This document shows positions 7,903 to 12,626 of a stretch of 20,696 nt of DNA, piece by piece. Both the position numbers and the translations under genes were made by a program. The DNA comes from a virus, in UHGV virus genome UHGV-0115176; one strand, written 5' to 3'. The stretch's first letter is position 1. Each line of letters starts with the position of its first letter. The notes under the pieces were generated by a model. It did not search any database. It had not been told where the DNA came from and saw only the letters and a list, made by a program, of their open reading frames with translations.

Positions 7903-9783
7903 TTAATACTCCGTCACGTTTTCCTGTCGCCACGCCTCGTCATATTCCGATTTCGGCATATTGGCGATGTAGCTATATGGCGATCCTGATTCAAGTTGCA
8001 GGAACTGGTGCGATTGCTCGTCAAGGAACAACGGGACACCACCTTCCCAACCTTCGCCGTTACGTTGTTTTTCAAGCATCAAAACAGATGCAGGAGACGC
8101 CAGTAGCTGTTCGTCCTTCTCTGACATCTTTTCACCACTCTGAACTCTCTGTAACGCTCTCTCGCGAGCCTTGTTACGCCAGATGATGAAAAGGTTGTCT
8201 GTCAGGTCTGTTATCGCTCCAGAGCCTTTTACGTCCATTTTCCCGGTTGGTTTTTCTTCGCTGTCTCCTTTTCGCGAGTGAGTAACGAGAATGACGTGGG
8301 AGTTTGTTTTGTTTTTGAAGTCGCAAATCGAGTCAACAAACGCCTTCTGCCCGTTATAGTCATCGTCGCCTATGCCACATTTCATCAGGCTGTCGATGAT
8401 GAATAACTGGATCCCGTATCGGCGGCGAGCGTAGTCGAATATTTCGATCAGCCTGTCGGCTTTCGCCGTTCCGGTCAGGCCAAACACCCAAAGTCTTTCG
8501 TCATAAAATTTAAATGCAGAGTCAATTTCCAGCACTGGCGGCATCTTGCAGCACGTCGCCTGACGGGTAAGGCGCTTAAGGAGAATACCAGGCTTCAGCT
8601 CAAGTGACGCGATGCACGTCTTCACACCCTGACGCATTGCCTCAAGTGCCATATGCCCGACAACCTCCGTTTTTCCGTGACCGTTCACCCCATTGACCAG
8701 CGTCAACTCTGCCTCACGGAACTGGAATTTATCTGCCAGAGATTCCCACGGTGGATTAAACAGATACTGCTGCTTGCCGTAGAAAGCGTTGATAGTGTCC
8801 TGGTAAAACTCTCGCGCGCTGTAGAGTTCTTCAGGATCGAAGTAGGATGCCGTGCCGATGTACTGCCAGATTTCATCCTCGGTAACACCGTTCATCAGGC
8901 ATTCGTTGATGTCTTTGTACGGCAGAGTAACAAGACGGCAACGATGTTCACCGAGTCGGCTTGCGATTTCCCTTGCGGCTTCACGACCAACATCATCAAC
9001 GTCCATCGAGATGAATATTTCCTCAAACCTGTCGAGGTTGTGATACTCAAACTCAATCCACTGTTGCTTAGCGCCTTTCCCGCCACCAAACGGCACGGAT
9101 AACGCCGAGATGCCGTATTGCGCATAGCTCATACAATCAATTTCGCCTTCGCAAAGCACAACCGCCCTCACGCCAGCGTCCAGAGCCTGCCATCCGAACA
9201 GGCAAGGTTCGCAATCACCTTCTGCCATAATGACTTTCTTCCCGTCCGGGCGCTCAGTGCTGATTCGCTTGACCTGCAACAACTCACCATCGCGTTTGTA
9301 CGGAATCACCAGAGCATCCAGTTCCCGCTCTCCATTCCACACCTTGCCGCTGACAACCTCGTAGCGCTTTACGATTTCTGGCGATATGCCACGCGATTGC
9401 AGGTACTCAAGATGGGATTCTGTTCTGGTAACGTAGCGGGCGATTTTCTTACGATCAGGTCTGGAGAATTTCTTCTCACGTCTGGCATCGAAATGGTGAT
9501 CGTCATCCTTGATACCGAGAAATGCTTTCGCTTCCTGCATAGCCTGATGCAGGTTAATTCCACGACATGCCATCCACAAATCAAGCATGTCACCGCCGTC
9601 TCCCTCAGCGAAATCAGCCCATTTTTTCTTGCCGCTAAGGTTGACCTTAAGGCTGTTTCCCTTGTCACCGTTGACGTTACCGGCAACCCACTCATGCCCC
9701 TCTTTCTTGCCGTTTGGCAACAGGTGTGGAGCCACCCTGTCAACCTGCGCCCAAAGCAGGTAGCTAAGTTCACTTGGAGTCAT
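7903..9783 (-). CDS. Bifunctional DNA primase / replicative helicase (TOPRIM + P-loop DnaB/gp4-like)
   Basis: 626 aa; TOPRIM-like acidic motif VVLCEGEIDCMSYAQYGI, Walker A GVNGHGKT, Walker B-like FIIDSLMKCGIGDDD; ATG at 9781-9783 with GAGGG SD. Confidence 0.8.
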   Translation of the reverse strand: MTPSELSYLLWAQVDRVAPHLLPNGKKEGHEWVAGNVNGDKGNSLKVNLSGKKKWADFAEGDGGDMLDLWMACRGINLHQAMQEAKAFLGIKDDDHHFDARREKKFSRPDRKKIARYVTRTESHLEYLQSRGISPEIVKRYEVVSGKVWNGERELDALVIPYKRDGELLQVKRISTERPDGKKVIMAEGDCEPCLFGWQALDAGVRAVVLCEGEIDCMSYAQYGISALSVPFGGGKGAKQQWIEFEYHNLDRFEEIFISMDVDDVGREAAREIASRLGEHRCRLVTLPYKDINECLMNGVTEDEIWQYIGTASYFDPEELYSAREFYQDTINAFYGKQQYLFNPPWESLADKFQFREAELTLVNGVNGHGKTEVVGHMALEAMRQGVKTCIASLELKPGILLKRLTRQATCCKMPPVLEIDSAFKFYDERLWVFGLTGTAKADRLIEIFDYARRRYGIQLFIIDSLMKCGIGDDDYNGQKAFVDSICDFKNKTNSHVILVTHSRKGDSEEKPTGKMDVKGSGAITDLTDNLFIIWRNKARERALQRVQSGEKMSEKDEQLLASPASVLMLEKQRNGEGWEGGVPLFLDEQSHQFLQLESGSPYSYIANMPKSEYDEAWRQENVTEY

Positions 9784-9890: not shown

Positions 9891-10682
9891 TCACCTGTCG
9901 AAAAACACGTAGCCAGTTTTCGATACGGTGATTGCGGATGATGGTTTGGATTGTGGTTGAATAGTTTCTGGCTTCTCGTCGTTCCAGCGCTGACCGTTCA
10001 GGTAGCTCGATGGTAACAACCTGTCGAATCCGAACTGCTTACCATTCCTGCATGCGATGTCTTCTGCCAGCATCGTGGCAAACTCGCTTGCCGTACCCCT
10101 GGTAGTTTTACGCCATTCCCTGAACTGTGTTCTGAATGCTGAAGCTGCGTTTTTCTTCCCGGCTTTCCGCATGCCTGCACACCAGAATATTTCCTCGAAT
10201 GCCTTGTCGGTTTCTTCGTGACGGTCAGGAGTTTTTTCACACTCTGTTCGGACATGTTCGAACATAATGTTTTTAGGTTCATTGACTGGTTCAAAAGAGT
10301 GACTGGTTCTGGGTGAATCTCCTGCACTACCCCCTGGTGCAACTCCTGCACTACCTGGTGAATTTGCTGCACCAGATAGTGAATTATTTGCACTACCCCC
10401 TAGTGAATCTCCTGCACCATCCAGATGAAGGAGATAGATATTACTTGAGTTACCTTTTTCACCTTTCCGGGTGACTTTTTTTACCAGCCCGGACTCACAA
10501 AGGGCCGCAATATGATTCATCACAGAACGTTTGCTAATCTCGCACTGGTCAGCAATATGCTGGTAGCTGGGCCAGCACTCACCCTGATCGCTGGCATTAT
10601 CAGCCAGCTTGATCAGAACCAGTTTTCGCAATGGATTACCCACTCGAATTTTCATCGCTTTAACCATCAGCTCCATACTCAT
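9891..10682 (-). CDS. Replication initiator (HTH DNA-binding, lambda O-like role) containing an internal iteron array
   Basis: 263 aa; N-terminal winged-helix/HTH-like region (KIRVGNPLRKLVLIKLADNASDQGECWPSYQHIADQCEISKRSVMNHIAALCESGLVKKV), then a Gly/Ser/Ala low-complexity linker encoded by the direct repeats, then a C-terminal domain; the ATG overlaps the upstream stop. Confidence 0.7.
   Translation of the reverse strand: MSMELMVKAMKIRVGNPLRKLVLIKLADNASDQGECWPSYQHIADQCEISKRSVMNHIAALCESGLVKKVTRKGEKGNSSNIYLLHLDGAGDSLGGSANNSLSGAANSPGSAGVAPGGSAGDSPRTSHSFEPVNEPKNIMFEHVRTECEKTPDRHEETDKAFEEIFWCAGMRKAGKKNAASAFRTQFREWRKTTRGTASEFATMLAEDIACRNGKQFGFDRLLPSSYLNGQRWNDEKPETIQPQSKPSSAITVSKTGYVFFDR
10312..10422. 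repeat. Five imperfect 21-24 bp direct repeats (iterons), candidate replication origin inside the initiator gene
   Basis: Plus-strand units start near 10312, 10336, 10357, 10379 and 10403 with core GTGAAT(C/T)T(C/G)CTGCAC(T/C)A(C)C; flanked at 10427-10470 by a more AT-rich stretch. Confidence 0.6.
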
Positions 10683-10903
10683 GCTGCACCTCCGAGATGC
10701 TTCATGTTTTTTCCGGAGCGAAAGGCTATAAGCGGCATACTGACGCGGTAATTACGGCCCAGCGGTTCACAAACCACCTTCTGACATTCACGGTCAACCA
10801 GGCTAACACGTAGAACATGCCCTGCAGGCGTGGTGTACCACTGACCCGGACGAGGACAACGGAAAGTATGATTGGTAAACCGTTTGAAAATATTCCGGAT
10901 CAT
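10679..10903 (-). CDS. Hypothetical small protein (74 aa) with three Cys (possible zinc-ribbon-like)
   Basis: ORF-track ORF; 4-nt overlaps with both neighbours (ends 10900/10903 and 10679/10682) imply a translationally coupled operon member. Confidence 0.55.
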   Translation of the reverse strand: MIRNIFKRFTNHTFRCPRPGQWYTTPAGHVLRVSLVDRECQKVVCEPLGRNYRVSMPLIAFRSGKNMKHLGGAA

Positions 10904-12060
10904 TTGCGCCCCCTTACCTCTGAAGGGTTCAGCGACAAATTTATGAGACTGGCCAGTAGCGCCGCGTCGTTGATGCGGTCATACAGACTTACAGCCAGCG
11001 GGGATTCGGCTTTTGCCAACATGGGATAAAGCTGCTGCAGCCAGACCTTGTGGATTACCGACAGGTGGGAGTAAAGCACGCTGGCGTTATCTGCGGCATC
11101 GCTCAGCGTGGATGGCTTTGAAAGCAGTTTTTCCATCTGGTTAAAGGCATTTATGTATGCCTCTTTGAACCGGGCAGCACGTTTACCCGTGAAACCCATA
11201 GCAAGAAACGCAAAACCGTCTCGTGTGATTTGATAGCAAGGGAGCTTGCGTGTACCACCGTTCGGTTGATTTACCGAAATCGATGTCTCCGCAAAATTGC
11301 GGGCACAAAACTCTGGGGAACAATCCAGAGTGCGGATCTTTTTCAGCACATCGTCGTGACGCTTGGAGAAGAAGTTGGCAACAGCCAAAGAAGTGGTAAC
11401 GGCCTGGCCGTTGTCAATGGTGATTTCAGGTTGAGTGAGGGCTGGGATCGTAGCCATGATGGCAGCCTCCGTTGACAGTGAAAAACTTCCACCACCGGAA
11501 ACGCCAATTTCACTGGTGGTGAACTGGACGGGGTTGGCGTAACCGGCGTCAACGGAGACCGGCGCACCTTTCGGTGCCCCCGCCCAGCCCACCATAATCT
11601 GGATGTGAGCAAATGCGGACGATAAAAAAGACGCTGGCGCGTCATACATCGCCGTTGACAATTTCAGGACGCCAATCCCGGCACCCGCTTTATAAGGTGC
11701 CTGAGCAGTGTAACGTCCCGGAATTGCAGAATCAATATGCTGGTGGTCCTTCACACTCAACAAAATCACGCCTGAATTTCCACAAAGGACTAAAGCACTC
11801 ATGCGGGTAGTCTTTGCGAAGATAGATAACGCGCTGTGTTTCTGGCTCCCAACGAATAACATGGACATAAAGCCCTCTTCCGTCACGAAACCAGCGGTTA
11901 AGTTCCTGCACAACTCGCCCCCCACAGTCAGGTAAAGTTCTCTGTGGTTACTTACAGCCAGGTGATTTGGTAATCTGCATTCATGCCGTAACAACAGGTG
12001 TTCAGCGACGCTGACCACCAGCTGTTGCGACAAACGGTTATTTGCCGTTAAACTATTCAT
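10900..12060 (-). CDS. Rha-family phage regulatory protein, long ORF with a ~200-codon N-terminal extension (canonical Rha start at 11457)
   Basis: The segment from the internal ATG at 11455-11457 (GGAGG SD 8 nt upstream) reads MATIPALTQPEITIDNGQAVTTSLAVANFFSKRHDDVLKKIRTLD...ITRDGFAFLAMGFTGKRAARFKEAYINAFN, a Rha-type N-terminus. The same frame stays open for 201 further codons upstream to an ATG at 12058-12060 that overlaps the preceding gene's stop. Confidence 0.55.
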   Translation of the reverse strand: MNSLTANNRLSQQLVVSVAEHLLLRHECRLPNHLAVSNHRELYLTVGGELCRNLTAGFVTEEGFMSMLFVGSQKHSALSIFAKTTRMSALVLCGNSGVILLSVKDHQHIDSAIPGRYTAQAPYKAGAGIGVLKLSTAMYDAPASFLSSAFAHIQIMVGWAGAPKGAPVSVDAGYANPVQFTTSEIGVSGGGSFSLSTEAAIMATIPALTQPEITIDNGQAVTTSLAVANFFSKRHDDVLKKIRTLDCSPEFCARNFAETSISVNQPNGGTRKLPCYQITRDGFAFLAMGFTGKRAARFKEAYINAFNQMEKLLSKPSTLSDAADNASVLYSHLSVIHKVWLQQLYPMLAKAESPLAVSLYDRINDAALLASLINLSLNPSEVRGRK

Positions 12061-12626
12061 GCGTTAGTTTCTCCACAACCAGAAGCAATCGACGCCACGA
12101 CGCCCGGAGCTGCACACTCGCGGGCGTCACTCTTTTCTGGAGCGCAAAAGATTTTGTAGACCAGTGCTGCATGCTCCTGGAGCTTCGAAATTGACAGATA
12201 CAACTCATCATTAATTGCTGTCTGCTCGTGTGGCTCCACTACCCCATCTTCGATTGCCGAACGAATCTGCTTTGAGTAACTCCCGATCTGTTCGATGACT
12301 TCCAGCAGGCGCTGGTTTATATCGGCATTCTCTACTTCCTCAATTTCAGGAAGCGATACAAACACCCCACCAGCAGACTGTGCGACAGCATCCGCAATGT
12401 AGTGAGTGCCAGCCGCGCGCTGTAAAATCATTGCCCATCCCAGCGGGAAAATCTGATCGCCATCTGCACGAAGGCGGTTGAATAAAGCGTTCTCTGTTAC
12501 ATCCAGCCACTCAGCAGCTTCAGCGTAACCCCCCGGCAACGCCGCGATAGTTTTTCTGACAGCTTTCACGTACCACTCAGGCTGTTTTTCTACTTTCCAG
12601 TGATGCTTACCCACGGTTAGCCTCAT
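12057..12626 (-). CDS. CII/YdaT-like early regulatory protein (family assignment tentative)
   Basis: 189 aa; second gene of the rightward early operon, directly after cro, the position of cII/ydaT-type genes in lambdoid and Rac-like prophages; family from memory only. Confidence 0.6.
   Translation of the reverse strand: MRLTVGKHHWKVEKQPEWYVKAVRKTIAALPGGYAEAAEWLDVTENALFNRLRADGDQIFPLGWAMILQRAAGTHYIADAVAQSAGGVFVSLPEIEEVENADINQRLLEVIEQIGSYSKQIRSAIEDGVVEPHEQTAINDELYLSISKLQEHAALVYKIFCAPEKSDARECAAPGVVASIASGCGETNA

Follow-up and report, generated by a model that had tools for sequence, protein, structure and literature searches.

An IsrK/C4-type RNA module within a 386-codon open reading frame precedes a Rha antirepressor-type gene in virus genome UHGV-0115176

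The window analysed here, the whole 20,696-nucleotide (nt) stretch of virus genome UHGV-0115176, carries a 386-codon open reading frame (ORF; 12060..10900) that ends in a Rha domain and has 201 codons 5' of a nested in-frame ATG (11457-11455). Very probably this long ORF is not one protein gene with an unknown N-terminal domain, but a ymfM-like start, a DUF4222 gene, IsrK- and C4-type RNAs, a leader and a Rha gene arranged in series. The core of the locus is explained by known elements, namely a Rha antirepressor gene with a C4/IsrK antisense switch, located behind a ymfM/DUF4222 overlap. The two RNA families, the position of target site b2 over the GGAGG of the nested ATG and the co-variation of the a and b pairing sites indicate that this ATG is the predicted start of a 185-amino-acid (aa) Rha antirepressor under control of the P1 immI, P4 CI and Gifsy-1 IsrK type. 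All features of the region lie on the minus strand, and coordinates are window positions. From upstream to downstream they are:

12057..12626, minus strand: ymfL (Phage_CP76/CII-like), the upstream gene, whose stop overlaps the ATG of the long ORF
11912..12060, minus strand: diverged ymfM-like 5' segment, codons 1-50 of the long frame; positional homologue of e14 ymfM
11732..11911, minus strand: DUF4222 gene, 59 aa, with a GTG start and a G-rich Shine-Dalgarno (SD) sequence; -1 frame relative to the long ORF, overlapping codons 50-110
11707..11735, minus strand: sigma-70-like promoter candidate; TTGATT (11735-11730), 17-nt spacer, TACACT (11712-11707)
11624..11700, minus strand: IsrK-type small RNA (sRNA; RF01394); sites a1 (11675-11669) and b1 (11659-11652), intrinsic terminator at its end
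11593..11595, minus strand: upstream ATG at C4 position 5, M156 of the long frame; homologous to the start of Gifsy-1 orf45
11512..11599, minus strand: C4-type antisense RNA (RF01695); b' at 11557-11548 (CUCCGUUGAC), a' at 11540-11534 (ACGCCAA)
11466..11507, minus strand: target leader; a2 at 11507-11501 (UUGGCGU), b2 at 11476-11467 (GUCAACGGAG), the latter overlapping GGAGG
10900..11457, minus strand: 185-aa antirepressor-type gene with a Rha domain, starting at the nested ATG; Phage_pRha at residues 21-110
10679..10903, minus strand: 74-aa gene (phrog_1153), orf74, next in the ATGA-coupled chain and followed by an O-like replication gene (9891-10682)

Direct observation covers both RNA families and their structure, as well as the complementarity of the cognate sites and the way in which it co-varies. 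Rfam searches were carried out at gathering thresholds (GA). The C4 model matched over its full length (1-87) with 81.4 bits against a GA of 45, and the isrK model reached 62.2 bits against a GA of 50. Segment b' of C4 (nt 43-52) is complementary to b2 over 10 nt, and its first 8 nt also match b1 inside isrK; segment a' (nt 60-66) has a 7-nt complement both at a1 and at a2. In the predicted fold of the 261-nt leader, a'/a2 and b'/b2 were paired and the SD sequence was sequestered (minimum free energy -117 kcal/mol, z = -5.4); the cognate b'/b2 duplex of the window had an energy of -23.4 kcal/mol. The terminator of isrK consists of a stem at 11643-11630 followed by T6. The start codon was located 47-57 nt 3' of C4 in every locus examined.

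The same tandem of isrK and C4, both above GA, was found in C. braakii, P1-like RCS47, ST64B, SfV, PhiR47_1, Stx2c_2409, Hafnia yong2, F004, VT2-Sakai, phiSTEC1575, PhiR55_1, ArgO145, Tyrion, an Actinobacillus phage, TL-2011b, P4 and Gifsy-1. Among 20 DUF4222 loci of other genera, only that of C. braakii had such a module. RNAalifold, applied without Rfam to a 15-sequence alignment, recovered the C4 three-way fold, made up of a closing stem and two hairpins, as well as the isrK hairpins. Within this alignment 99.2% of the predicted-pair cells could pair, compared with 37-45% in slid controls, and double-sided changes occurred in 17 pairs, compared with 8.2 in shuffles (0/500). Intermolecular a/b pairs were scored by duplex energies, since a 3-nt indel shifts the register of the alignment columns. 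The a and b sites of 15 phages co-varied at three positions, with at least seven a-types and at least nine b-types. Mean energies of cognate and non-cognate duplexes were -16.0 and -7.8 kcal/mol for b'/b2, -14.0 and -6.4 kcal/mol for b'/b1 and -9.3 and -5.2 kcal/mol for a'/a2, and the b' segment ranked its own b2 target first in 13 of the 15 loci. GenBank entry LC710661 annotates both an 'isrK Hfq binding RNA' and a 'C4 antisense RNA', and its coding sequence (CDS) begins at the equivalent ATG.

An earlier note on this DNA, made from the letters alone, had regarded the nested ATG with its GGAGG as a genuine start, and the homologues agreed: the Rha, Icd or antirepressor proteins of ArgO145, F004, RCS47, VT2-Sakai and Tyrion start at the same Met. 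GGAGG is located at 11470-11466, 8 nt upstream of the ATG, and the anti-SD pairing of this codon (M202; -9.5 kcal/mol) is the strongest among the in-frame starts of the long ORF. The Rha protein of ArgO145 is 54% identical to the short product of the window from Met1 onwards (MATIPVLSQPEITI vs MATIPALTQPEITI), and a stop lies 8 codons upstream of its start Met; P1 Icd begins MATVPTPTHPEF. Phage_pRha (PF09669) matched the 185-aa product with 99 bits against a GA of 29.9 (residues 222-311 when the long ORF is searched), and the Rha stop overlaps the ATG of the following gene as ATGA (10903-10900). In P1-like RCS47, F004, VT2-Sakai, ArgO145, Tyrion, the Actinobacillus phage and TL-2011b all three frames contain stops across the module. 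The frame of the ATG is closed 4-16 codons upstream in six of these seven loci, while in F004 it closes inside isrK. AlphaFold, run on one shallow 8-sequence alignment for both parts of the long ORF, gave predicted local distance difference test (pLDDT) scores below 50 for residues 1-210, and in the Rha domain (residues 211-310) the block means were 61-88.

The description of the upstream extension given in the earlier note proved accurate in its outline. The extension does comprise 201 in-frame codons, starting at an ATG that overlaps the stop of ymfL as ATGA (12060-12057), and it is indeed rich in Ala, Ser, Gly and Val (40%, vs 29% in the Rha part) and poor in Asp, Glu, Lys and Arg (12%, vs 20%). 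At the stop-triplet frequency of the window (0.041) an open run of 201 codons has a probability of ~2e-4 and hence exceeds chance. The statement that the extension has no recognisable fold agreed with the low pLDDT scores; a Pfam match to Phage_ASH at residues 117-212 had, however, been overlooked, together with the DUF4222 gene in another frame and the two Rfam families, of which C4 targets GGAGG. The suggested structure prediction and profile search of the first 200 residues yielded no fold, and a Phage_ASH match besides DUF4222 in another frame. In the suggested comparison with homologous prophages, stops are present upstream in the seven loci named above, a separate gene, DUF4222, exists in another frame, and the long frame is free of stops in the window's own context.

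Judged by homology to P1 immI, P4 CI and Gifsy-1 IsrK, the C4 segments a' and b' would pair with a2 and b2 and occlude the ribosome-binding site (RBS) of Rha, and this would keep Rha untranslated in the lysogen. The a1 and b1 sites of isrK might act as decoys that compete for the C4 segments, either in cis or, as a short terminated sRNA, in trans, and such competition could relieve the C4 block on Rha. The direction of regulation, the processing of the RNAs and the role of Rha as an antirepressor are likewise those expected from the analogous systems. The start of the ymfM-like ORF would be translationally coupled to ymfL.

The layout a1b1-c4-a2b2 is that of the P1/P7 immI operon (PMC8198154). 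In immI (a1b1 - c4 - a2b2 - icd - ant1/ant2) the elements follow each other in the same order as in the window, with b2 over the RBS, and in P1-like RCS47 both C4 (RF01695) and the isrK/a1b1 element exceeded GA, as they did in the window. The regulated ORF of the window starts MAT(I/V)P..., like P1 Icd. It differs from P1 in that a separate 73-aa icd is missing; only the first ~11 residues are Icd-like, the Rha domain follows after ~20 residues, and the antirepressor is of the Rha type and not P1 Ant. In addition, the module is situated inside a lambdoid early-right operon and a continuous ORF, whereas P1 has stops in all frames. The a/b specificity differs between phages by co-variation, as it does between P1 and P7, a difference said to have been described by Citron & Schuster in 1990 (cited in PMC8198154). 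The immunity region of P4 (CI RNA, with targets seqA and seqC) likewise showed Rfam matches to C4 and isrK/a1b1, and there, too, an ORF over the RNA gene had been annotated as a protein and matches Pfam Ash, as the long ORF does. P4 CI acts mainly through premature transcription termination, and the downstream genes of P4 (epsilon, orf151 and alpha) differ from those of the window.

The isrK-orf45-anrP locus of Gifsy-1 has the arrangement of the window: isrK (34316-34240) is followed by C4 (34214-34131) and the antirepressor gene lies directly downstream. In Gifsy-1, IsrK is transcribed from a separate promoter and its terminator is leaky (PMC4825925). The orf45 frame starts at the AUG of C4 position 5, which is A107 counted from the transcription start site, and a second AUG follows 12 nt later; its 45 codons extend across C4 and leader, and its UGA overlaps the AUG of anrP (AUGA). 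The AUG at C4 position 5 was kept in all 16 loci examined (the window, C. braakii L084 and the phage loci L124-L137). In 15 of them it shared the frame of the main start, even across intervening stops, at spacings of 129, 132, 135, 138 or 141 nt (133 nt in the exception). The corresponding codon of the window, M156, has no SD sequence and is in frame with M202 without a stop before Rha, and the upstream ORF that it opens is thereby unlike orf45, showing no AUGA coupling. The M156-Rha arrangement resembles the orf45-anrP fusion of S. dysenteriae (S8 Fig legend, PMC4825925). Whereas the Gifsy-1 locus adjoins antQ, the module of the window follows ymfL/DUF4222.

Codons 1-110 have a different origin from the RNA module. 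DUF4222 (PF13973) matched ORF 11911-11732 with 51.1 bits against a GA of 27 in Pfam (phrog_1343, E = 2e-36), and the SD pairing of its start is -9.3 kcal/mol; phrog_1170 matched residues 48-98 of the long ORF. In the e14 prophage of K-12, ymfL-ymfM occupies the same position as ymfL and the long ORF, with the ATG likewise on the ymfL stop and DUF4222 embedded in the same frame relation. The ymfM gene of e14 encodes 112 aa, is annotated as a cell division inhibitor and overlaps an unannotated DUF4222 ORF with an AAGGAG SD sequence and a TTG start; YmfM (b1148) has been equated with the division inhibitor SfiC. The overlapping pair is located at L003 3323-3681, and its DUF4222 ORF has no annotation in NC_000913.3. 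In the VIRWEPETQRVIYLR segment e14 and the window show six differences, every one of them synonymous when read as DUF4222. Unlike the long ORF, e14 ymfM ends at a stop of its own, 10 nt short of the next gene, and lacks the IsrK/C4/Rha cassette; codons 1-50 of the window have lost most of the YmfM motif.

Across 40 diverse genomes (L084-L123), counted from the start of DUF4222, the open stretch in the ymfM frame reached from about -170..-299 to +157..+163, while the third frame was closed, and the DUF4222 start codon was kept as ATG, GTG or TTG in all 40 loci. Among 22 diverse sequences, entropy by codon position was coding-like in the N-terminal ~55 codons of YmfM (0.37/0.30/0.61), and in the overlap (0.44/1.15/0.50) it peaked at the third positions of DUF4222. 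The ymfM frame remained open across DUF4222 in 37/37 loci, where synonymous resampling gave ~0.13 per sequence. The DUF4222-like evolution of the overlap and the open ymfM frame argue that ymfM and DUF4222 are a genuine overlapping gene pair. A programmed -1 frameshift from ymfM into DUF4222 was ruled out by the start codon of DUF4222 itself in all 40 loci, its SD sequence and the stops 3-114 nt upstream. In the lineage of the window, variable sites in the overlap were distributed 6/25/9 over the codon positions, again with the peak at DUF4222 third positions, indicating that across long-frame codons 50-110 DUF4222 is the frame under purifying selection. For codons 1-50 of this lineage the coding signature was weak or absent, the conserved N-terminal motif of YmfM is largely lost, and two relatives (L011 and L031) are frameshifted there. 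The ATG position and frame of the segment are nevertheless those of YmfM. Its own stop, normally located ~20 nt before the DUF4222 stop, is absent, so that the frame continues into the RNA module. The idea of a fusion after loss of a stop, one of three options offered in the earlier note, therefore applied in part to residues 1-110, and was not the reading for residues ~111-201.

A DUF4222 variant with the sequence G(L/F)YVHV is common to the window, ST64B and C. braakii, all of which have the RNA cassette; it creates two long-frame ATGs (M65 and M67; 11860-11868) and an SD-like run, GGAAGAGGG. Neither these ATGs nor the SD-like run are present with the GIPVRV variant of cassette-free loci. 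The SD pairing of M65/M67 is moderate (-6.3 kcal/mol), and phrog_821 (324 positions) aligns from residue 61 of the long ORF, close to these codons. Published ymfM clones that cause filamentation contain both the ymfM and the DUF4222 frame, and in the published ymfM papers checked, no frame-specific controls or sub-fragments separating the two were found.

Several observations weigh against reading the module solely as non-coding RNA genes under their own promoter. The c4-a1b1 model (RF03163) stayed below its gathering threshold (22.5 vs 46.7). The promoter candidate, 6 nt before the 5' end of isrK, agrees with the consensus at 8/12 positions, and because of this limited agreement a consensus promoter scan called no site in 11300-12200. 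Its assignment thus depends solely on positional conservation, which was seen in 17 loci, Gifsy-1 included, where the isrK promoter has been documented experimentally (PMC4825925). Furthermore, orf45 of Gifsy-1 is experimentally translated and coupled to anrP, with conservation of nucleotides but not of amino acids (PMC4825925); the C4-homologous stretch is translated there, so 'RNA gene' and 'translated' do not exclude each other. Finally, from the DUF4222 stop to the ATG the long frame contained no stop in 66 unique relatives of the ymfL/DUF4222 context, and the indels found there were of 3, 3 and 3 nt or a compensated 1+2 nt, all of them preserving the frame. Purely non-coding DNA would not be expected to behave in this way, and some translation across the RNA genes is therefore likely. 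As a separate observation, the -35 hexamer of the promoter candidate overlaps the DUF4222 stop TGA (11734-11732), so that the 3' end of DUF4222 would double as the promoter of the RNA module.

One alternative adds translation to the RNA switch. The long frame would be translated on transcripts from the early right promoter, starting at the ATG at 12060 or at M65/M67, and ribosomes would pass the IsrK terminator and C4, giving either a long Rha protein with a disordered N-terminus or a relay of translation to orf74 and the O-like gene. In the 66 sequences the other two frames contained stops at 23 and 16 distinct positions over the same stretch; single-nucleotide paths that create a stop were similarly numerous in the three frames (27.9/30.5/38.0). 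The distance from the isrK start to the ATG was 237, 240, 243 or 246 nt in the eight loci of the ymfL context and in Hafnia yong2, whereas in other contexts, which also contain stops, it was not a multiple of 3. In Hafnia yong2, with a strongly diverged DUF4222 and a different upstream gene, the long ORF is preserved from the stop of the previous gene across DUF4222, isrK and C4 to the ATG of the next gene. ATGA overlaps join ymfL, the long ORF, the 74-aa gene and the O-like gene over 9891-12626 (12060-12057, 10903-10900 and 10682-10679). Together with the stop-free frame, the indels and yong2, these overlaps suggest that ribosomes traverse the RNA module on early-operon transcripts. The ymfM frame kept open across DUF4222, the start of the phrog_821 alignment and the SD sequence of M65/M67 are likewise in favour. 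The absence of codon periodicity and of a predicted fold, the strong intrinsic terminator in the middle of the ORF, the non-independence of the relatives as samples and the missing SD sequence at M87, an alternative start in existing annotation, speak against it. We consider this addition to the RNA switch quite conceivable, at somewhat below an even chance. The 'two-isoform gene' offered in the earlier note is a possible reading that gained some support from the selection against stops. The 'non-translated open frame' came closest of the three options for residues ~111-201, which do not form a protein domain, although some translation is likely.

Within the stop-free set RNA pairing and a/b specificity co-vary, so both constraints act on one DNA. 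Tentatively, in lambdoid prophages of the ymfL/DUF4222 type selection may keep the frame open through IsrK and C4 without constraint on the amino acids, and ribosomes on early-right transcripts may translate through the module and override the switch during lytic growth. If so, sRNA genes and a 'content-free' translated ORF would share one DNA, yielding a long Rha isoform or a relay along the ATGA-coupled genes, and the read-through would explain the existence of the spurious-looking Ash 'protein family' discussed below.

A neutral origin of the open frame is unlikely. According to this explanation, an IsrK-C4-Rha cassette was recombined beside DUF4222 and the ymfM stop was lost, the frame then staying open by inheritance and owing to G+C-rich RNA genes. 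The region indeed has 57% G+C, compared with 47% in the window, an open run of 92 codons would arise by chance with a probability of ~2%, the usual ymfM stop (+157..+163) is absent only in loci with the cassette, and the N-terminus of ymfM looks decayed in the window. However, many stops arose in the other two frames of the same relatives and none in the long frame, independent 3-nt indels and the compensated 1+2 indel preserved the frame, and the arrangement persists in Hafnia yong2.

The Phage_ASH match remains to be accounted for. Ash has been treated as a protein domain of unknown function (PMC8951638), and a survey of P4-like satellites equated Ash with epsilon, using PF10554 as the epsilon marker (PMC8628076). 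Phage_ASH (PF10554) matched the long ORF with 75.5 bits against a GA of 26 (E = 5e-21), spanning the nested Met. In nucleotides this match is 11712-11425 and thus coincides with isrK, spacer, C4, leader and the first 11 codons after the nested ATG. NCBIfam gave no match for the extension. The NCBI Prokaryotic Genome Annotation Pipeline (PGAP) is not consistent here: one copy, 100% identical, is given as a 386-aa Rha protein, and another, 99.6% identical, as a 300-aa Rha protein together with a DUF4222 CDS. Neither copy has a stop in the long frame, and the shorter protein corresponds to the alternative start M87. Hundreds of database entries named 'ash family protein' share the first 201 residues, and their C-termini diverge just after MAT(I/V)PALT. 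Among 1.84 billion representative proteins only 221 matched Ash, anywhere in proteins of 52-821 aa, and the match starts either at about residue 104-121, which is where isrK has its 5' end, or at 153-158, where the AUG of C4 lies. One 821-aa database protein (P0126) has three separate Ash-like stretches, suggesting tandem or repeated isrK/C4 modules read as one ORF. In P4, the historical 'cI gene product (AA 1-137)' ORF (8168-8584) matched Phage_ASH (E = 4e-16, positions 44-107 of the hidden Markov model); it contains the Rfam C4 match 8507-8420, the region of the CI RNA, with the isrK/a1b1 match a short way upstream. P4 epsilon is assigned to another family, PF25738. In 69 unique relatives, variable sites from isrK to the ATG were distributed 52/56/51 over the codon positions (16/16/11, 7/7/7, 17/17/20 and 12/16/13 in its successive parts), without codon periodicity, and the Ash segment had pLDDT scores of ~23-34. 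PF10554 thus appears to have been built on translations of the isrK/C4 module. The earlier note had held that a conserved separate domain family among homologues would speak against its reading; Pfam Ash is formally such a family, but since it maps onto RNA genes this observation misleads. It is highly improbable that, as in Pfam and PGAP, a true Ash domain has been fused to Rha and the RNA-family matches are only incidental: the Phage_ASH score, the many 'ash family' names and the label 'transcriptional regulator' of phrog_821, phrog_995 and phrog_3960 stand against the coincidence with the RNA elements, the stops in all frames in the same DNA of seven loci, substitutions that track RNA pairing rather than codons, the rarity and arbitrary positions of the matches, the P4 member being an obsolete 'cI protein' ORF over the CI RNA, and the low pLDDT.

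The wider 2.1-kb region from ymfL to orf74 was matched in 3112 of 5426 complete E. coli genomes. Against NZ_CP095271 (L139), its best match in E. coli, the window proved to be mosaic, with divergence below ~9900, and the annotation of that genome could not be carried over to the whole window. At 7903-9783 the window has a 626-aa primase/helicase-like ORF, and NZ_CP095271 has PerC, a methyltransferase, a LexA-family gene and RusA in its place.

For annotation, the 386-aa (or 300-aa) 'Rha family phage regulatory protein' of RefSeq/PGAP is a mis-annotated system of a known kind, and the evidence indicates that the 'Ash' family held in Pfam, PHROGs and NCBI is the translation of two small-RNA genes. 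What remains of interest is the selectively kept open frame over RNA genes, the reinterpretation of Ash and the ymfM/DUF4222 overlap, the last of which bears on the question of which product is the SOS-inducible division inhibitor SfiC. The findings place an antisense immunity switch of the P1/P4/Gifsy type, with many co-varying specificities, in very common prophages of E. coli, Shigella and Salmonella, where it bears on induction and heteroimmunity.

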